A DNA stretch of 64,000 bases from Candidatus Eremiobacteria bacterium (GTDB lineage Bacteria > Vulcanimicrobiota > Vulcanimicrobiia > Vulcanimicrobiales > Vulcanimicrobiaceae), in assembly GCA_963758295.1 (NCBI GenBank), contig CAVWUU010000003.1:160001-224000 (forward strand), written 5' to 3'. A program made the translations under genes and the position numbers. The notes under the pieces are model-generated. The model did no database searches, had not been told where the DNA came from, and saw nothing but the letters and a program-made list of their open reading frames with translations. Below, in pieces: positions 20,945 to 28,716 of the stretch (the first letter of the stretch is position 1; each line of letters starts with the position of its first letter).

Positions 20945-21700
20945 ATGACGTCGCTCGAAATACTCGGCTGCCGGCTCGATGCGATCGACGCCACGGAAGC
21001 GACGCGCCGTATCATCCAGTTCGCGCTCAACGGTACGCCGTCGCTAGTGGTCACGCTCGGGACCGAGATGGTCGTTCAAGCGCAAAACGACGAACGGTTT
21101 CGCGCCATCGTGAACGCCTCGGCGTTGAGTTTGTGCGATACGGTTGGCCTGCTCGCCGTTGCGCGACGGCGCGGCGCGAATTTGCACGAACGCGTTACCG
21201 GCGTAGAGCTAATCGAGCACCTTTGCGCGCAGGGCGCTCGCGATGGCGTCCCGGTGTACTTTTTCGGCGGCGCGGAAGGCGTGGCGGCCGACGCAGCGGC
21301 GATTCTCGAAGCGCGTTTCCCCGGACTCAAAGTCGCAGGCACGCGCAACGGATTTTTCCGTCCGGAAGATGTGCCGGCCATTGCGGAAACGATCCGCGCC
21401 ACCGGTGCCAAGTTGCTCTTCGTCGGACTAGGATCGCCGCGTCAGGAGTATTGGCTGGCGGAAAACTTGCAGGCGTCCGGTTGCGCGGTAGGGATCGGCG
21501 TCGGGGGATCATTCGACGTTATTAGCGGACGCGTACAGCGTGCGCCGATGTTCTGGCGCCGTTTCGGGATAGAATGGCTTTATAGGTTAGGCCGGGAGCC
21601 GCACAGATGGCGTAGGCAGCTCGCGCTACCGTACTTTGTTTGGCTTATCGCGCTCGAGCGCTTGGGCCTCAGCGCAAAAAAGGGAAGAACCAGCACGTGA
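20945..21700 (+). CDS. WecB/TagA/CpsF family glycosyltransferase
   Basis: RVTGVEL, VGLGSPRQE, GVGGSFD, RAP, GIEWLYRL..EP.RWRR. Confidence 0.92.
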   Translation: MTSLEILGCRLDAIDATEATRRIIQFALNGTPSLVVTLGTEMVVQAQNDERFRAIVNASALSLCDTVGLLAVARRRGANLHERVTGVELIEHLCAQGARDGVPVYFFGGAEGVAADAAAILEARFPGLKVAGTRNGFFRPEDVPAIAETIRATGAKLLFVGLGSPRQEYWLAENLQASGCAVGIGVGGSFDVISGRVQRAPMFWRRFGIEWLYRLGREPHRWRRQLALPYFVWLIALERLGLSAKKGRTST

Positions 21701-22731
21701 AAGCGATGATTCTTGCCGGCGGGCTGTCGACGCGCCTCTATCCGCTCACCAAGCAGGTGCCGAAGCCGCTGGTTCCCGTCGGTGGAAAGCCGAACGCCGT
21801 GCATCTCATTCACTACCTGAAGGCGTACGGCTTCGACGAGATCATCATCAACGTCCATTACTTAGCGGACGCCATTACAAACAAGCTCGGTGACGGCTCG
21901 GAATTCGGCGTGCACCTGGAATACTCGCACGAACCGGAACTGCTCGGGAGCGCGGGAGCCGTGAAACAAGTGCAGCGGTTCTTCGGCGACCAATCCTTCG
22001 TCGTTGTGGGATGCGACGATCTTACCGATCTGCCGCTCGATCGTCTTCTGGAAATGCACAAAGAGAAGAACGCGATCGCGACGATCGGCCTCGTGGAACG
22101 CCAGCGCGTCGATCAATACGGCGTCGTCGTTTTGGACGAAGACGGCTGCATTCGCGGATTCCAAGAAAAGCCCGAGCCGGGAACCGAGCGCAGTAAACTC
22201 GTGAACACCGGAATATACGCCTTTTCACCGGAAATTTTTGCGCATATTCCGTCGGCCGAATTTTATGATTTCGGCAAGCAAGTTTTTCCGGAATTGCAAG
22301 CCGAGCAGCTGCCGTTCTACGGCTTTGATGCGCGCGACGCCTACTGGTGCGACATTGGGACGCCCGACGAGTATTGGCGTGCAAGTGCGGACTTGGTGAA
22401 CGGACGGTTTGCTATTCCCGACACCCGCGCAAGCGGTGCAGATACAAGCGCGCAAGTTGCATCAAGCGCGAAGATCGATCCGAACGTCTGGATCGGCGCA
22501 CAGGCGAGAATCGGCGAAAACGTTCGTATTGCCGGGCCTTCGGTAGTCGGCGATCGCGTCGTGGTGGAAGATGGCGCCACATTGGATCGCACGATCGTTT
22601 GGGAGGGCTCGACGATCGGCGCGAATGCGCGCATTACAAATAGTATCATCGGTATTCGGTATCTCGTAGATGCCGGTGCGGAGTTGAATCGCAGCGTGGT
22701 CGCAAACGAAGAGGTTCCTCAGCCGCACTAG
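21697..22731 (+). CDS. Second NDP-sugar pyrophosphorylase
   Basis: ILAGGLSTRLYPLT..PKPL, LLGSAG, FQEKP, YWCDIGT, and a beta-helix C-terminus. Confidence 0.88.
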   Translation: MKAMILAGGLSTRLYPLTKQVPKPLVPVGGKPNAVHLIHYLKAYGFDEIIINVHYLADAITNKLGDGSEFGVHLEYSHEPELLGSAGAVKQVQRFFGDQSFVVVGCDDLTDLPLDRLLEMHKEKNAIATIGLVERQRVDQYGVVVLDEDGCIRGFQEKPEPGTERSKLVNTGIYAFSPEIFAHIPSAEFYDFGKQVFPELQAEQLPFYGFDARDAYWCDIGTPDEYWRASADLVNGRFAIPDTRASGADTSAQVASSAKIDPNVWIGAQARIGENVRIAGPSVVGDRVVVEDGATLDRTIVWEGSTIGANARITNSIIGIRYLVDAGAELNRSVVANEEVPQPH

Positions 22732-22762
22732 CCGGCCGGCGGATCCGCGTGATGGGCGAGCG

Positions 22763-23347
22763 ATGTCTCGCATCATCGATTTCCTTTTTCCGGCGCAATG
22801 CGCAGCGTGCGGAGCCGGGGGCAGCGGTTTATGTTTGCGGTGCGCGCCGATTTCGCGCGAACCGCTGCATCGAGCTCTTATGACGCTGAACATCCGTGCG
22901 GCCGGCGCCTATGAAGGCCATTTGGCGCGCGCGGTTCTCGCTTTGAAAAGCGGACGGCGCGACGTCGCCGACGCGCTAGCATTGCGGCTGGAGCCGCTCT
23001 TGCGCGCGGGCGATCTGCTCGTTCCCGTTCCCACGACCGCAAGGCGCCGCCGAATCCGCGGCATGGACAACGTCGTCGTGCTTGCGCAAAAAGCGTCGTG
23101 GCTGGCCGGCACAACCGTCGTGCCCGCATTGCGGCGCACCGGTGCCGACATGCAGCGCGGAAGGTCGCGCGCACAACGGTTAGCGGCTTCCGGACGCTTT
23201 CTTTGCGATGCTTCGGCGGTCGCTGCACGCCGCATTGTGCTCGTCGACGACGTATGTACGACGGGAGCGACGTTAGAAGACTGCGCACGCGTGATTCGCG
23301 CTGCCGGCGGAACGGTAGAAGAGGCAGCGGTCATAGCCCTCGCGTAG
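22763..23347 (+). CDS. ComF family phosphoribosyltransferase
   Basis: LFPAQCAAC..LCLRC zinc ribbon, VPVP, LVDDVCTTGATL. Confidence 0.88.
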   Translation: MSRIIDFLFPAQCAACGAGGSGLCLRCAPISREPLHRALMTLNIRAAGAYEGHLARAVLALKSGRRDVADALALRLEPLLRAGDLLVPVPTTARRRRIRGMDNVVVLAQKASWLAGTTVVPALRRTGADMQRGRSRAQRLAASGRFLCDASAVAARRIVLVDDVCTTGATLEDCARVIRAAGGTVEEAAVIALA

Positions 23348-23355
23348 AGAAGGGC

Positions 23356-24456
23356 GTGCCCATCTCCGCTCTCGACCGGTTATATCTCGAGCGAACTTAC
23401 GAGTTGGCGGCGCGCGGAATCGGCAGCACTGCGCCCAATCCGCCCGTTGGCGCCGTCGTCGTCCGCGACGGAAAAATCGTAGGTGAAGGCTACCATCACA
23501 AAGCCGGCGAGCCTCACGCGGAGGTCAACGCCATTAGAGCGGCCGGTGACGTTCGCGGCGCAACGGTGTACGTTTCACTAGAACCGTGCAACCACGTTGG
23601 CCGTACGCCGGCGTGTTCGCTCTCGCTCCTTGAGGCCGGAGTCCGGCGGGTAGTTGCCGGCGCGATCGATCCGAATCCCAAGACCAACGGCGGCGGTGTC
23701 GCCCGACTGCGCGACGCCGGAATCGAAGTGACGATAGCCGGCGACGAACGCGCGCGCAAACTGATAGAACCCTTTGCGTTTGCGGTCATCCACGAGCGCC
23801 CGTACGTGGCGTTGAAGATGGCAATGTCGCTTGACGGTTGCATCACGTCGAAACCAGGCGTGCAAGAATGGCTCACGAGCGAAGCGGAACGCTTGTACGT
23901 GCGGGATCTGCGCATTGCCTACGATGCGGTGATGGTGGGTGCGGGAACCGTGCGTGTTGACGATCCGCAGCTCACTGTTCGTCCGCCGCGCCACCGGTTA
24001 CGTCCATTCACGCGTGTCGTCGTTTGCGAGACCGACACCGTTGCGGAGTCGAGCCGTGTTTTCGCATCGCTGGAAGATTACGAGAAAACGATAGTGCTTG
24101 CCCCGGCGGGCGCAAAGCAACGCTTCGAAAACCTGCGCGAGGTCGCTGAGGTGCTTTTTGTCGGCGATGAATCGGCCACGCAGCTCGATCTTTCCGATGG
24201 GATGAAAACGCTACGCGCGTTTGGCATCCAAAGCGTTCTGTGCGAAGGCGGTCCGACGCTCGGGGCGCGACTCATTGAAGGCGACGTCGTCGATCGCTTC
24301 TACTGGGCGATAGCTCCCGTGTTGCTGAGTAATGCCGAAGCGGTGCCGGTGCTGGCCGGTGCAAATCTTGCAACGATCGGCCGGCGCTTGCGGTTTGACG
24401 GCATGGAGCGCGCGGGCGAAGACGTGGTTCTCACCGGCGTATTGGAACGCGTTTAG
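23356..24456 (+). CDS. ribD: Bifunctional riboflavin deaminase/reductase
   Basis: PNPPVGAV, HAE, SLEPCNH.GRTPAC, MSLDG, CEGG. Confidence 0.95.
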   Translation: MPISALDRLYLERTYELAARGIGSTAPNPPVGAVVVRDGKIVGEGYHHKAGEPHAEVNAIRAAGDVRGATVYVSLEPCNHVGRTPACSLSLLEAGVRRVVAGAIDPNPKTNGGGVARLRDAGIEVTIAGDERARKLIEPFAFAVIHERPYVALKMAMSLDGCITSKPGVQEWLTSEAERLYVRDLRIAYDAVMVGAGTVRVDDPQLTVRPPRHRLRPFTRVVVCETDTVAESSRVFASLEDYEKTIVLAPAGAKQRFENLREVAEVLFVGDESATQLDLSDGMKTLRAFGIQSVLCEGGPTLGARLIEGDVVDRFYWAIAPVLLSNAEAVPVLAGANLATIGRRLRFDGMERAGEDVVLTGVLERV

Positions 24457-24469
24457 GGAAGCGAAAACG

Positions 24470-25069
24470 ATGTTTAGCGGATTGATTGGATATCGAGGCC
24501 ACGTCGCGGCGCTCGAACCGCGTGAAGAAGGCGGCGTCACGCTGCGGCTTCATTGCGAGGGCGTGACGGAAGAAGCGCCGCAAGTGAAAGATTCTATCGC
24601 GGTGAACGGCGTGTGCCTGACGGCAACGGCGATCGACGGCGACGTGGTCGCCTTCGACGTCGTTCCGGAAACGCTTCAGCGCTCGTCGCTCGGAACGCTC
24701 GGTGAAAACGAAAGCGTAAACCTCGAGTACTCATTGCGAATCGGCGATCGTATGGGCGGGCATTTCGTCTACGGGCACGTCGATCGCAGTGCAGCGATCT
24801 TGACACGAACGCCCGAAGGTCAAGGCGAACGCGTGCGTATCGAACGTCCGGCCGCCCTTGCGCCAATGATTGCGGAGAAAGCCTTCGTGGCAGTCGACGG
24901 CGTAAGCGTTACGGTCGCCGCGGCCGGCGATGGCTGGTTCGAAATCGCACTCATTCCCGAGACGCTAGCGCGTACGACGCTCGGTGAACGTTCAGAAGGT
25001 TCGTGTGTAAATTTGGAAGTCGACCCGATGGCCCGGTACGCGCATTCGGTGCTGGAGGCCATGCGTTGA
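24470..25069 (+). CDS. ribE: Riboflavin synthase (alpha chain)
   Basis: MFSGLI, SIAVNGVCLT, VNLE, GGHFVYGHVD, IPETL, VNLEVD. Confidence 0.95.
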   Translation: MFSGLIGYRGHVAALEPREEGGVTLRLHCEGVTEEAPQVKDSIAVNGVCLTATAIDGDVVAFDVVPETLQRSSLGTLGENESVNLEYSLRIGDRMGGHFVYGHVDRSAAILTRTPEGQGERVRIERPAALAPMIAEKAFVAVDGVSVTVAAAGDGWFEIALIPETLARTTLGERSEGSCVNLEVDPMARYAHSVLEAMR

Positions 25070-25515
25070 AATTTCGCGATTCGTTGCCGGCCGGCGCGCG
25101 TGTCTTCGAGGCGCGTCTCACGGTACAGTGGGCCGACGTCGATATAGCGGGCATCATGTACTTCGCGGCGTATTGGCGTTTCGCCGAATACGCTGAAATG
25201 GAGATGTTCGGCGAACTCGGCTTTCCGTATAACACGGTCTTCGACGATTTAGACTTCTGGTTACCGCGCGTTCGCGTCGAAGCAGAATACCATGCGTCGG
25301 CCCTAATGGGCGACGTCATGCGGATGCGGACGCACCTCGAAAAAGTCGGCGCATCGAGCGTGAAGTGGAAAACCGTGCTCTTCAACGATTCTACCGGCAT
25401 TGCAAGCGCCGTCATGACGCTGACCGTGGCATGCATGAATCGTGCGACGAAGCGCAGCCAAGCCTTGCCGGCCCAGCTGCGCGAGAAGTTGCTCGCAGCG
25501 TGGACGCCGGTTTAA
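25066..25515 (+). CDS. Acyl-CoA thioesterase (4HBT/YbgC hotdog fold)
   Basis: VQWADVDIAGIMYFAAY.RFAE. Confidence 0.85.
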   Translation: MKFRDSLPAGARVFEARLTVQWADVDIAGIMYFAAYWRFAEYAEMEMFGELGFPYNTVFDDLDFWLPRVRVEAEYHASALMGDVMRMRTHLEKVGASSVKWKTVLFNDSTGIASAVMTLTVACMNRATKRSQALPAQLREKLLAAWTPV

Positions 25516-26075
25516 CGCTTTCGTAGCAGTGCAATCGCTTGTTGCGCGCGCTCGTCGCTAAAGTGCGTAGCAAGTTCGCCGAGCGTCTGCGGGACCGACG
25601 ACATAATGACGCCCGCATGAACCATGCGCGCGATAGACGCCCGTTCGCTGCGTTCCGAGGCGCCGTTGCACGCATCCAACACGACGCGCGCTTCGAAGCC
25701 GGCCTCCAGCGCGTGCAACGCTGCACGTTGAACGGCAATTTCCGTAACGACCCCGGCTAGAAGAAGCGTGCGGCGTCCCGTCGCATCGATCGACGAGCGA
25801 AGAGCCTCATCGTCTAACGAATCCGTGCCTTGACGCACGTGGAGCGGAAAATCGTCGCCAAGGACGTCTTCAAGCCGCCTAGTTAACTTGGGGTCCTTCC
25901 CGAGCGCAATAGCAGACACCACGATCGGGATGCCGTAGATCTGCGCCGCCTGCGCGAGCACCGCCGCCGTCTTATCGGTCTCGTGATGGTCGCTCGTGCG
26001 GGCACCTTCCGCAATGCCCTCTTGATGATCGACGAACAGCACTAGGGCGCGGTCGGCAAGGTCGTTCAGGTTCAT
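25512..26075 (-). CDS. Isochorismatase family hydrolase (YcaC-like)
   Basis: LVLFVDHQEG, LLLAGVVTEIAV, VVLDAC. Ala stands where the family usually has the nucleophilic Cys. Confidence 0.8.
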   Translation of the reverse strand: MNLNDLADRALVLFVDHQEGIAEGARTSDHHETDKTAAVLAQAAQIYGIPIVVSAIALGKDPKLTRRLEDVLGDDFPLHVRQGTDSLDDEALRSSIDATGRRTLLLAGVVTEIAVQRAALHALEAGFEARVVLDACNGASERSERASIARMVHAGVIMSSVPQTLGELATHFSDERAQQAIALLRKR

Positions 26076-26110
26076 TGCGCCGTTATACCCGCCGTTTTGG
26101 CGACCGTTGA

Positions 26111-26142
26111 ACTTGACACTTGTAAAGTCCGGGCCGTAGGCT
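26111..26142 (+). promoter_or_regulatory. Sigma70-type promoter of HTH-ribBA overlapped by an 18-bp inverted repeat
   Basis: TTGACA (26113-26118)-N18-TAGGCT (26137-26142), with ATG 7 nt later. Palindrome ACTTGACA-CT-TGTAAAGT at 26111-26128. Confidence 0.65.
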
Positions 26143-26149
26143 ACGCCAT

Positions 26150-27559
26150 ATGACCGCTTTTGCCCATCAGCTGAACTCCGCCATGGAGGCCGCAGGCCTC
26201 TCCGCGGCCGAGCTCGCCCAAAAAGCCGGCGTCACGGAATCAGCGGTATCGCTGCTTCGTTCCGGCCGCCGAGAACCTTCGTATAAGACGTTGCAGCGTC
26301 TCACGGGCGTGCTGCCCGATTTGGTTCCGTCACAGGCGCAAGATTCGAACCCCTTCGACATGATTGAAGACGCGATCGATGATATTCGCGCCGGCAAGAT
26401 GGTCGTCGTGCTCGACGACGAGGACCGCGAAAACGAAGGCGACCTTGTGATGGCGGCTCAGATGGTCAGTTCCGAAGCCATCAACTTCATGCGCAAGGAG
26501 GCCGGCGGACTCATCTGCGTGCCGATGCTCGGAAGACGGTTGGACGAGCTGCAGATTCCGCAGATGGTTTCGGACAACACGGCGGTCCACGAAACGGCTT
26601 TCACGGTTTCGGTTGAAGCGCGCGGCGTAACGACGACGGGAATTTCGGCGCAAGATCGCGCCGCAACGATCAAGATGCTGCTCGATCCGGAAGCGACTGC
26701 AGCGGATTTACTGCGTCCCGGTCACACCTTTCCGTTACGCGCCCGGGACGGCGGCGTGCTTGTCCGCGCCGGTCAGACCGAAGCGTCGGTCGATCTCGCA
26801 CGACTCGCGGGACTGTATCCGGCGGGCGTCATTTGCGAAATCATGGCCGAAGACGGAACGATGGAGCGACTCGAGGGGTTACGGAAGTATGCCGACCGCC
26901 ATGGGCTTCGGCTTATCACCGTAAAGGATCTCATAGCCTACCGTATGCGCACAGAAAAACTCGTCAAAAGAGTCGCAGAATTCGAGCTTCCCGCCACGAC
27001 CGGAAATTGGAAGGGCGTTGCTTACGAGAGCACCATCGACGGCAACACTCACGTCGCGCTCGTCATGGGGGACATCAGCAGCGGCAAAGACGTGCTCGTG
27101 CGCGTGCACTCCGAGTGTCTCACCGGCGACGCGCTGCACTCGATTCGTTGTGACTGCGCGGCCCAGCGTGACGGCGCAATGGCCATGATCGCTCACGGCG
27201 GCCGCGGTGTTTTCTTGTACTTGCGGCAGGAAGGGCGCGGCATTGGCCTTGCCAACAAGCTTCGCGCGTACGAACTACAAGATAAGGGAGCGGACACGGT
27301 CGAAGCAAACCTCGCGCTCGGGCTGCCGGTCGACAAGCGCGACTACGGCATCGGCTCGCAAATCCTCGCCGATCTGGGCGTCAAAGAAATGCGCCTCATC
27401 ACGAACAATCCGCGCAAAATTTTTGGCCTCGAAGGCTACGGCATCAAAATCACCGATCGCGTGCCGATGCAGACGAAGCCGACGGTCTACAACAAGCATT
27501 ACATGGCGACGAAGCGCGCGAAGCTCGGCCACATGTTCGACGACACGGTGGCTTCGTGA
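26150..27559 (+). CDS. ribBA: XRE-family HTH fused to bifunctional DHBP synthase / GTP cyclohydrolase II
   Basis: Residues about 1-57: LSAAELAQKAGVTESAVSLLRSGRREPSYKTL (HTH_3). Then DDEDRENEGD, GHTFPL, RVHSECLTGD, RCDC, QEGRGIGL. Confidence 0.95.
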   Translation: MTAFAHQLNSAMEAAGLSAAELAQKAGVTESAVSLLRSGRREPSYKTLQRLTGVLPDLVPSQAQDSNPFDMIEDAIDDIRAGKMVVVLDDEDRENEGDLVMAAQMVSSEAINFMRKEAGGLICVPMLGRRLDELQIPQMVSDNTAVHETAFTVSVEARGVTTTGISAQDRAATIKMLLDPEATAADLLRPGHTFPLRARDGGVLVRAGQTEASVDLARLAGLYPAGVICEIMAEDGTMERLEGLRKYADRHGLRLITVKDLIAYRMRTEKLVKRVAEFELPATTGNWKGVAYESTIDGNTHVALVMGDISSGKDVLVRVHSECLTGDALHSIRCDCAAQRDGAMAMIAHGGRGVFLYLRQEGRGIGLANKLRAYELQDKGADTVEANLALGLPVDKRDYGIGSQILADLGVKEMRLITNNPRKIFGLEGYGIKITDRVPMQTKPTVYNKHYMATKRAKLGHMFDDTVAS

Positions 27560-28053
27560 AGCTAAACGGATCCAGCCGTCCGCAGCCCGGGGTGCCGGAC
27601 TGCAACGGCAAGCGGTTTGCCGTCGTTGCGGCACGGTTTTATCGCGAACTCACGGATTGGCTCATTGACGGCGCGAAGCGCGCGTTGCGCGACGCGAACG
27701 TCGATGAAGCGGATATTTCGGTTTACGAAGTCCCGGGATGTTTCGAGTTGCCGCTCGCGTGCCGTCGTCTTATCGATCAGGATCGCGTTGATGGAATCGT
27801 TGCCGTCGGCGTCGTGATTCGAGGCGACACGCCGCATTTTGATTTCGTTGCGGGTGAGTGCGCGCGCGGAATCATGGACGTGCAACTGATGACCGGCGTG
27901 CCGATCGGCTTCGGCGTCTTGACCACAGAGAATCTTGTGCAGGCCGAAGAACGGGCCGATCCGAGGCGCGGAGATAAGGGATACGAGGCAGCCGTTGCGG
28001 CTGCGACCCTCATGCACATTCCCGCCGACCTTCCTCGCGCCGGCTTTCGGTAA
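27556..28053 (+). CDS. ribH: 6,7-dimethyl-8-ribityllumazine synthase
   Basis: VAARFY, VPGCFELP, GVVIRGDTPHFD, FGVLT. Confidence 0.95.
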   Translation: MKLNGSSRPQPGVPDCNGKRFAVVAARFYRELTDWLIDGAKRALRDANVDEADISVYEVPGCFELPLACRRLIDQDRVDGIVAVGVVIRGDTPHFDFVAGECARGIMDVQLMTGVPIGFGVLTTENLVQAEERADPRRGDKGYEAAVAAATLMHIPADLPRAGFR

Positions 28054-28083
28054 AAGATCTGCGGGAGCGGGTACGCTCTGCGC

Positions 28084-28308
28084 ATGCAAGACCGCAATCA
28101 AAAAACGCTAGACGGCGAGCCGCTCGTAGATCGCGGCACGATCGAATCCCGACGCGACGAAGAGACGCAAGAAATGGAACAAAATCCGCCGGTGGACGAA
28201 ACGGATTCCGGACCGCAACCGGTTCTCGGGAGCAATGACGCCGAGCCGCGCAATACCAACCAAGAGAAGCATCCCACGATAGCAGCGGAAGACGCCAAAG
28301 ACACGTAA
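28084..28308 (+). CDS. Small acidic hydrophilic protein
   Basis: 74-aa D/E/Q-rich ORF preceded by the GCGGGTAC-N9-ATG motif. Confidence 0.6.
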   Translation: MQDRNQKTLDGEPLVDRGTIESRRDEETQEMEQNPPVDETDSGPQPVLGSNDAEPRNTNQEKHPTIAAEDAKDT

Positions 28309-28419
28309 CGTCGAGAGGGTCGGGCGACGCTTGGCCGGTATGCGGGGCAAAGGAGGGGTTCGCTTACCAAAGTCGCATTAAGCTTGCCCTAACCCATCAG
28401 CGTGTGGAGGCCTCGACCC

Positions 28420-28716
28420 GTGGAAGACAAGATGATCACCTGTAAGGACTGCGGCAATGAGTTCGTGTTTACAGCACGCGAGCAGCAGTTTTTTGCCGAA
28501 AAGGGATTTCAGAATCAGCCGCAGCGCTGCCGCGAATGCCGCCAAGCCCGGCGCGCGACGAGCGGCGACGGCATCGGTTCGAGCGCCCAGCGCCCGAGCT
28601 TTGAAACCGTGTGCGCCGCATGCGGCGTGAATACCACCGTACCGTTCCGTCCTCGCGGCGATCGCCCGGTGTACTGCCGCACGTGCTACACCGCGCAGGT
28701 CCCGGCGGGCGTTTAA
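28420..28716 (+). CDS. Zinc-ribbon (zf-trcl-like) plus CxxC-x17-CxxC domain protein
   Basis: CKDCGNEFVFTAREQQFFAEKGF.N.P.RCREC and CAACG...VPFRP.GDRPVYCRTC. Confidence 0.9.
   Translation: MEDKMITCKDCGNEFVFTAREQQFFAEKGFQNQPQRCRECRQARRATSGDGIGSSAQRPSFETVCAACGVNTTVPFRPRGDRPVYCRTCYTAQVPAGV

Follow-up and report, generated by a model that had tools for sequence, protein, structure and literature searches.

An XRE-type helix-turn-helix domain fused to RibBA and a conserved palindrome over the ribBA promoter: a candidate autoregulating riboflavin enzyme in one bacterial order

Introduction

The riboflavin genes of bacteria have been described as controlled by flavin mononucleotide (FMN) riboswitches, RbkR has been described as an archaeal regulator in which a winged helix-turn-helix (HTH) is joined to a CTP-dependent riboflavin kinase, and BirA, NadR and PutA have been cited as bacterial fusions of an enzyme with a regulator (PMC5397151, in the part of its text available to us). 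A further precedent comes from Wolbachia, in which two stand-alone factors of the XRE family, wBmxR1 and wBmxR2, bind the promoter of ribA, and wBmxR1 activates a reporter (PMC3518464, likewise in the part available to us). Here we describe a gene, HTH-ribBA, in which an XRE-type HTH domain precedes a complete RibBA in one open reading frame (ORF), and a palindrome over the promoter of this gene that is a candidate for its operator. The gene lies in a 64,000-nucleotide stretch of DNA from a Candidatus Eremiobacteria bacterium (GenBank assembly GCA_963758295.1, contig CAVWUU010000003.1, positions 160,001 to 224,000 of the forward strand). We refer to this whole stretch as the window and give all coordinates as positions within it.

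An earlier note on the window, made from its letters alone, had proposed that the fusion represses its own gene and had stated that its author knew of no described HTH-RibBA regulator. Our searches of the full-text literature also gave none; the fusion may be catalogued without comment in InterPro-type listings.

Results

The fusion gene and its protein

The gene and the parts of its product are as follows.

26150..27559, + strand: HTH-ribBA gene, a single ORF of 469 aa (Pfam and direct reading)
26150..26314, + strand: XRE/Cro-C1-type HTH domain, residues 1-55 (Pfam, fold model, sequence matches)
26315..26365, + strand: variable linker, residues 56-72 (variation over 25 loci, low predicted local distance difference test score, pLDDT)
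26366..26941, + strand: DHBP synthase domain, residues 73-264 (Pfam, alignment to 4i14)
26969..27466, + strand: GTP cyclohydrolase II domain, residues 274-439 (Pfam; C323, C334 and C336 invariant)

The reading of this ORF as a complete HTH_3/XRE domain joined in frame to a RibBA with intact catalytic motifs, with which the earlier note had begun, was borne out on both counts, as three Pfam domains lie above their cut-offs in the one frame. HTH_3 (PF01381) matched residues 11-55 (E 2.1e-8, 34.5 bits against a cut-off of 23) and HTH_31 also passed (30.8 bits against 27). The two enzyme profiles were matched in full, DHBP_synthase (PF00926) by residues 73-264 (E 2.7e-85, profile positions 1-191 of 191) and GTP_cyclohydro2 (PF00925) by residues 274-439 (E 4.4e-70, positions 2-165 of 165). 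The acidic loop D89-D98, H192, E211 and the cysteine triad C323/C334/C336 were invariant in 32 fusion proteins. We take the acidic DDEDRENEGD loop of DHBP synthase and the Cys-X10-Cys-X-Cys of GTP cyclohydrolase II to have catalytic or metal-binding roles. Residues 69-462 matched residues 4-404 of the solved RibBA 4i14 end to end (E 1.8e-136), and the first 68 residues are therefore an addition to an otherwise ordinary RibBA. Based on PF00926 and PF00925 each having one match only in the 3.03-Mb assembly to which the window belongs (G000, 82% complete), the fusion protein is probably the working DHBP-synthase/GTP-cyclohydrolase-II enzyme of this genome.

The linker is about 15 residues long and varies in both length and sequence across 25 loci. 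The model of the full-length protein was poor (mean pLDDT 63), with values below 50 at residues 60-65 of the linker. The model of residues 1-62 alone had a pLDDT of 88.7 and comprised four helices, at residues 3-15, 19-26, 30-38 and 45-54. Foldseek superposed it with probability 1.00 and a query TM-score (TMq) of 0.78-0.84, at E-values of only about 4e-3 for so short a domain, on the DNA-binding domain of SinR, C.BclI, DdrO, P22 c2 and 434 Cro; CapH was also among the superpositions, at a TMq of about 0.8. Sequence matches of the N-terminus were to a designed DNA-binding protein, 434 repressor, SinR and DdrO (E 9e-5 to 6e-2). Judged from the model, the N-terminal domain is a genuine XRE fold. 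It starts no more than three residues from the conserved ATG or GTG, with F4 and L8 invariant. The putative recognition helix is TESAVSLLRSG (residues 29-39), in which T29, E30, A32, S34, L36 and R37 show little or no variation among the fusions.

A search of 1.84 billion representative sequences with the HTH alone showed the close relatives of the 68-residue N-terminus to be fragments of the same fusion. All eight single-stretch matches that were longer than 100 aa and at least 50% identical carried both the HTH and DHBP_synthase. No stand-alone close relative of the HTH was found among these representatives, and the remainder were generic proteins of tandem XRE repeats. Some of the latter that topped the HTH search are very long (P0122, P0124 and P0130), P0122 having 11 HTH_3 stretches in 1002 aa.

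Distribution of the fusion

Families are referred to here as f1 and f2, which belong to the window's order, and f3, which belongs to a sister order of the same class. The search for the HTH_3 plus RibBA architecture that the earlier note had suggested was productive: the 120 top protein matches listed were full-length, 458-506 aa long and 82-96% identical, and 119 of them carried PF01381. Among related genomes, 40 of 41 had a match. All 29 matching f1/f2 genomes contained the HTH part, some with the contig cut or the reading frame shifted, and the matches in 11 of 11 f3 genomes began at query residues 53-68, with MPLATIEEAI.

When residues 1-110 were searched against 401 genomes of the phylum (13 of them unpublished, and no conclusion is based on unpublished genomes alone), matches were obtained in 279 of 296 f1 genomes and in five of five f2 genomes, mostly at E 1e-31 to 1e-52. 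In f3, 27 of 30 genomes matched at about 1e-13 to 1e-16 only, through the DHBP part alone, and other families of the phylum had a weak match or none. By hand count, ten f1 matches were weaker than 1e-30, and all ten were followed up. Three of these genomes, G110, G166 and G180, truly are without the HTH; G024, G261, G282 and G376 are clipped by contig ends, the contig of G058 ends 42 nt upstream of the match, and in G333 and G386 the gene is broken up over different frames.

Metagenomes gave the same picture, in that 80 contigs found by alignment to the HTH only all stayed in frame, 78 of them reaching the DHBP domain and two ending at the contig edge. A search of sequencing runs for the locus gave no RNA run and two DNA runs from soil, with small shares (0.09 and 0.08), which we did not use as evidence. 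Genome contigs were also scanned for fusions in other phyla, with the best 80 loci kept rather than an exhaustive set; three of these cover the HTH (L061-L063), and in the ten other kept loci with the longest N-terminal reach no HTH was seen in the translations, which were read by eye and not scanned with Pfam. The earlier note had regarded absence of the fusion from relatives as a sign that it might be an assembly artefact; the fusion is in fact carried by nearly all genomes of one order and is not an artefact.

In three genomes the HTH-ribBA gene was in pieces over at least two frames (G010:C1:823174-824560, G333:C14:666168-667552 and G386:C23:36619-38024). These splits may be assembly indels or real decay.

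A palindrome over the promoter of ribBA

The elements of the start region are the following.

26112..26127, + strand: candidate operator, the 16-bp palindrome CTTGACA-CT-TGTAAAG (direct reading, conservation, uniqueness)
26113..26118, + strand: -35 hexamer TTGACA, which is the left arm of the palindrome (direct reading)
26137..26142, + strand: inferred -10 hexamer TAGGCT, 18 nt past the -35 (conserved position)

The 18-mer ACTTGACA-CT-TGTAAAGT at 26111-26128 is symmetric at seven of eight arm positions and lies over a perfect TTGACA, and TAGGCT is followed by 7 nt (ACGCCAT) and then the ATG at 26150, before which direct reading found no GGAGG-like Shine-Dalgarno sequence. Each of these elements had been reported in the earlier note and is located where it was reported to be.

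The palindrome has the general form CTTGACA-NN-TGTnAAG, overlapping the -35 box. When loci were aligned on the start codon only, with no anchoring by pattern, it stood at a fixed place between flanks that could not be aligned. All 25 genome loci that offered at least 60 nt upstream had exactly one TTNACR-NN-YGTNAH site, 31-41 nt ahead of codon 1, and 76 of 79 metagenome loci had one at a distance of 35-42 nt, which places the candidate operator on the promoter of ribBA and the following gene, ribH, in 101 of the 104 loci with enough upstream sequence. Our counts include loci of the unpublished genomes G004 (L005), G013 (L015), G024 (L024, L056) and G036 (L027, L034); with L005 and L015 dropped, the genome-locus count is 23 of 23. 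At one locus (L194) the operator is clipped by the contig end and the right arm is visible. The refuting case named in the earlier note, that the palindrome might not be conserved in fusion-bearing genomes, was therefore not supported.

The conservation extends to symmetry, as loci with a deviant -35 remain symmetric (GTTAACG-TC-TGTTAAC and ATTTACG-TT-TGTAAAC). A sigma-70 promoter has no sequence requirement in the spacer, where the right arm falls.

The site is also unique. TTNACANNTGTNAA occurs once in the 3.03-Mb assembly, and a weight matrix derived from the other 100 sites scored 24.9 bits here and 15.7 bits at the next-best place in the genome, a gap of 9 bits. A scan for further copies, which the earlier note had recommended, thus yielded a single operator and a single ribBA gene in this assembly. 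The strict pattern was found at 26 distinct places in 23 genomes among G000 and 29 f1/f2 relatives, and 23 of the 26 were at the start of ribBA; a reversed-pattern control gave two matches in all 41 genomes. The palindrome is beyond chance.

The extra strict-pattern sites were inspected as candidates for a second regulon member, and none was suggestive. G009:C1:630251 lies before a Fur-like gene and G000:C3:24526 (TTGACAAATGTAAG) within a 639-aa ORF, and neither was taken as a second target; the G008:C227 site is the same ribBA start seen again on a duplicate contig. Of the strict-pattern sites in f3, those of L032 and L034 are inside genes and those of L031 and L033 are before ArsR-like genes. 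In the latter two loci (genomes G033 and G037, position 1501) a perfect TTGACA-NN-TGTCAA precedes ArsR-like genes that adjoin glyoxalase-like genes, and in these genomes, which are without the fusion, the 14-mer appears to serve a different regulator.

Three further observations were made on the surroundings of the operator. At about 495-640 of L058 (G006:C129) there is a second promoter and operator stretch (…tatattatCTTGACAAATGTCAAG…TAGTCC…), near-identical to that of the genome's own ribBA, with no HTH or rib gene after it. What follows instead, about 40-75 nt downstream, is a hairpin resembling a terminator, and the stretch may represent an orphan promoter, a small RNA or a remnant of duplication. 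In L007 (G014) and L008 (G011), from two genera, a long near-perfect palindrome, CATACTTGAAACG-N2-3-CGTTTCAAGTATG, lies about 60-90 nt upstream of the operator and may be an operator or terminator of the neighbor gene. Lastly, the motif TTAATGGGCAAAGC lies about 25-60 nt upstream of the operator, in full in L004 and L005 and as a variant in L009, with L061 showing only GGCAAAGC; an AT-rich stretch resembling GATATAT comes next, immediately before the palindrome, in several genera whose flanks cannot otherwise be aligned.

Promoter geometry

A TAnnnT hexamer at a spacer of 16-18 nt was present in 91 of 101 loci, and in 87 of these 91 it ended 6-9 nt before the start codon. The spacer was 17 nt in 38 of the 91 loci and 16 nt in 26; that of the window is 18 nt. 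A 4-mer resembling a Shine-Dalgarno sequence was found ahead of the start in only six of 101 loci, whose start codons were ATG (41), GTG (58) and TTG (2). Given a -10 so close to the start codon, and a Shine-Dalgarno sequence almost never, the ribBA mRNA is probably leaderless, which agrees with the proposal of the earlier note.

Relatives without the HTH domain

None of the three f1 genomes that are without the HTH had the palindrome. In G110 the promoter was kept (TTGACA-17-TAGCCT-6-ATG) and the right arm read GTTTGC, matching one of five specified positions. G180 had a Shine-Dalgarno sequence and no TTGACA palindrome, and G166 had an f3-like ribE-ribBA junction together with a Shine-Dalgarno sequence. 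G110 is the most informative of the three: its promoter survives without the right arm, which indicates that this arm forms no part of the promoter proper and is lost along with the DNA-binding domain. In f3, ribBA directly follows ribE, and no promoter, palindrome or HTH was seen in the five loci read (four without the unpublished L027).

The G166 locus (L226, G166:C1) is unusual for its genus, g51, other genomes of which match the fusion at E about 1e-36. Possible explanations of its junction include replacement by transfer, mis-binning or loss.

Search for FMN riboswitches

The earlier note had seen no FMN riboswitch at ribBA or before ribD, and our searches likewise identified none. Rfam at gathering score found only two tRNAs over the window, and a permissive scan of 21500-28500 found no FMN-like element. 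RF00050 had no match in the window's own 82%-complete assembly, in any of 41 relatives, or in any of 150 genomes over 21 families of the phylum; the large sweeps used stricter Infernal filters and scored part of the candidates, so that these results are to be read as not found in those searched. A control search with RF00050 was positive in seven of 14 reference genomes.

Neighboring genes

The genes on either side of HTH-ribBA are listed below.

27556..28053, + strand: ribH (lumazine synthase), whose GTG start overlaps the ribBA stop codon
25512..26075, - strand: divergent isochorismatase-family gene (Pfam, ORF reading)
23098..25069, + strand: ribD and ribE, a separate transcription unit (no palindrome, no riboswitch)

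Because its start overlaps the stop codon of ribBA, ribH is most likely co-transcribed with it. The promoter is contained in the 74-bp intergenic region between ribBA and the isochorismatase-family gene. The ribD and ribE genes continue from a gene of the ComF type, and a separate Shine-Dalgarno sequence precedes ribE. They are parted from ribBA by two genes, so that the regulated unit would be ribBA-ribH: a 4HBT-type thioesterase gene on the + strand and the isochorismatase-family gene on the - strand, together at 25003-26075, occupy the space between ribE and ribBA, which are adjacent in f3. The upstream neighbors of ribBA differ between loci.

Both ORFs of the ribD-ribE unit are over-long as called (23098-24456 and 24332-25069). 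The true start of ribE is the ATG at 24470 (MFSG…), 13 nt past the ribD stop, and that of ribD is probably near 23350, based on the deaminase domain beginning at ORF residue 94 and the ComF-like gene stopping at 23347. Downstream of ribH and before an IF-2B-family gene, 28402-28716 encodes a small protein with two treble-clef zinc fingers (zf_Tbcl and zf_Tbcl_2).

Discussion

A candidate enzyme-repressor

We consider it likely, at a probability of about 0.72, that HTH-RibBA is a dimeric enzyme-repressor that autoregulates ribBA-ribH. The protein would be a bifunctional "trigger enzyme", an XRE HTH on a flexible linker of about 15 residues attached to a complete and presumably active RibBA. Two hallmarks of such enzymes were found here, DNA-binding and enzyme domains in one chain and a candidate cognate operator before genes of the same pathway. 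RibBA enzymes are dimers, and a dimer of the fusion could present two HTH domains, one to each arm of the palindrome. The 16 bp of the palindrome extend over the -35 hexamer and halfway into the spacer of what is probably a leaderless promoter, and with a transcription start at the start codon the center of the site would be near -30. Protein bound there would keep RNA polymerase from the -35 and so repress transcription of ribBA-ribH. In this way the two steps by which riboflavin synthesis begins would be under negative autoregulation, with a regulon of a single operator per genome.

We further speculate that the protein senses metabolites and is the functional replacement of the FMN riboswitch in the whole order, although we regard this extension as doubtful. 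Candidate effectors would be GTP, Ru5P or a flavin; the alternative is that binding follows the concentration of the protein alone. The quaternary arrangement of the enzyme might shift when the DHBP-synthase or GTP-cyclohydrolase site is occupied or a flavin end product binds; the altered spacing of the tethered HTH domains would then allow riboflavin flux to be read at the ribBA-ribH promoter.

Several points weigh against autorepression by a dimer. GTG, the start codon of 58 of 101 loci, is unusual on leaderless mRNAs of the best-studied organisms. A simple sigma-70 consensus scan did not call the promoter, because TAGGCT matches TATAAT in three of six positions, and the -10 was assigned by its conserved position and not by consensus strength. 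The site is degraded in three metagenome loci that carry the fusion, in the right arm of L186 and L213 (TGAAAAG) and in the left arm of L199. Mean information content was 1.40 bit for the 16 columns of the operator and 0.12 bit for 29 columns of upstream flank, but the sites were anchored by pattern, so that part of this invariance is circular, and relatives are non-independent samples. The full-length model, at its pLDDT of 63, is too poor to place two HTH domains in the dimer. The fold search also returned HppE and HEPD, enzymes with an XRE-like domain, and XRE-like domains on enzymes can serve structure alone. Covariation between protein and DNA carries little weight as well. Residue 31 (S versus A/G) and residue 35 (L versus Y) correspond in the alignment to Q29 and Q33 of 434 repressor, which we take to be base contacts, and both positions track operator base 12, with S31 accompanying non-T in 60 of 65 loci and A/G31 accompanying T in 35 of 36; on a tree, however, this amounts to two supported independent pairs, with which a sign test cannot reach significance. 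The tree was of the DHBPS part, with 84 rows (17 loci that had fewer than 180 residues or no site were dropped), and the traits change 8, 5 and 7 times on it. We therefore discounted the covariation as evidence, as it is not phylogenetically independent, and kept it as a hypothesis on specificity.

Alternative explanations

One alternative is that HTH-RibBA does bind the palindrome but activates, either by a MerR-like remodelling of a weak -10 and longish spacer or by contact with RNA polymerase. The poor -10 box (TAGGCT, 3/6) and the spacer, 18 nt long in the window and 16-18 nt at other loci, are what such a mechanism would exploit, and one of the stand-alone XRE-family factors that bind the Wolbachia ribA promoter activates a reporter (PMC3518464, in the part available to us). 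Yet with 17 nt in 38 and 16 nt in 26 of 91 loci the spacer is not uniformly over-long, and the promoter seems able to manage without the protein in G110, which without its HTH keeps the -35/-10 geometry while lacking the right arm. In addition, the site covers the -35 itself with its center near -30, and proteins bound near -30 usually exclude sigma region 4. We judge activation to be improbable.

It is also conceivable that the N-terminal domain is a structural or protein-interaction module, with the palindrome belonging to the promoter or serving some other factor as its site. HppE and HEPD, with their XRE-like N-terminal domains, are precedents among the fold matches, and the covariation loses its significance once phylogeny is considered. 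Against such a module, the recognition-helix residues T29, E30, A32, S34, L36 and R37 are kept, and the palindrome occurs at ribBA only, once per genome, and is missing from all three HTH-less f1 genomes and from the f3 loci read. The case of G110 shows that the left arm is needed by the promoter and the right arm is not. No other candidate factor accompanies the site, since the upstream neighbors vary between loci. Overall we find this explanation unlikely.

That the fusion is an artefact, whether a wrong start, an assembly join or two merged genes, might be suggested by the frame-split genes of G010, G333 and G386, but is refuted by the recurrence of a single open frame in hundreds of independent assemblies and the 80 metagenome contigs, in which the HTH begins within three residues of the conserved start with no stop and no alternative start between the domains.

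Implications

A whole order, a lineage of uncultured soil bacteria in a phylum in which no FMN riboswitch was found among 150 genomes, appears to use protein control instead. If HTH-RibBA is an autorepressor, it would constitute a compact module of one protein and one site, easily tested in vitro and reusable. It would also provide an evolutionary series for the gain and loss of a circuit, from f3, with its ribE-ribBA operon and no HTH, through f1/f2, with fusion, operator and leaderless promoter, to G110, in which the HTH and right arm are lost and the promoter is kept. Should the sensing version also be true, this would be the first protein-based feedback regulator of bacterial riboflavin synthesis that has the enzyme of the committed step as its sensor.

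Comparison with known systems

HppE and HEPD resemble HTH-RibBA in having an XRE-like helical domain N-terminal on an enzyme. No operator is known to us for these domains, nor any binding of DNA by them, whereas the domain described here is accompanied by a conserved palindrome. The closer likeness of the domain itself is to 434 repressor and Cro, P22 c2, SinR, DdrO and the C-proteins of restriction-modification systems, both in fold (TMq about 0.8) and in sequence (E 1e-4 to 1e-2). Those proteins act as dimers on short palindromes, often over promoters that include their own. Proteins of the 434 type dimerize by small C-terminal domains or on DNA, in contrast to the fusion, in which the presumed dimerizer is a bifunctional enzyme of 400 residues.

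With the FMN riboswitch (RF00050), by which rib genes are usually controlled in bacteria, the proposed circuit would share its presumed purpose, feedback control at ribB/ribBA or a rib operon. The riboswitch is an RNA in the 5' leader that senses FMN, whereas the ribBA mRNA described here probably has no leader, and no RF00050 match was found in the window, its assembly or the 150 genomes of the phylum.

The Wolbachia factors wBmxR1 and wBmxR2 are also of the XRE family and act at the promoter of a bifunctional ribA (that is, ribBA) gene, where binding of HTH-RibBA is predicted by us. They differ from it in being unfused, in binding at -201 to -113, in activating a reporter, and in co-regulating a type IV secretion operon (PMC3518464, as far as the part available to us states).

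RbkR is similar in that its enzyme, which also belongs to flavin metabolism, carries a DNA-binding domain. It controls riboflavin genes where FMN riboswitches are lacking from the lineage, and its prediction likewise came from comparative genomics of operators. It differs in its parts, a winged HTH and a kinase at the end of the pathway, where the fusion has an XRE/Cro-C1 fold on the two entry enzymes. RbkR is also archaeal and has a multi-gene regulon for which activation and deactivation have been proposed, whereas the present protein has one operator, at its own promoter, where we infer repression (PMC5397151, for RbkR, in the part available to us).

Like BirA, NadR and PutA, as that source presents them, HTH-RibBA unites DNA-binding and pathway-enzyme domains in one polypeptide; genes of their own pathway are regulated by those proteins, as we predict for the fusion. 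The folds and pathways are different, and effector-dependent binding is established for those three, whereas the fusion is known from sequence alone. If our interpretation is correct, HTH-RibBA would be a new addition to the small set of enzyme-repressor fusions of the BirA, NadR, PutA and RbkR type.

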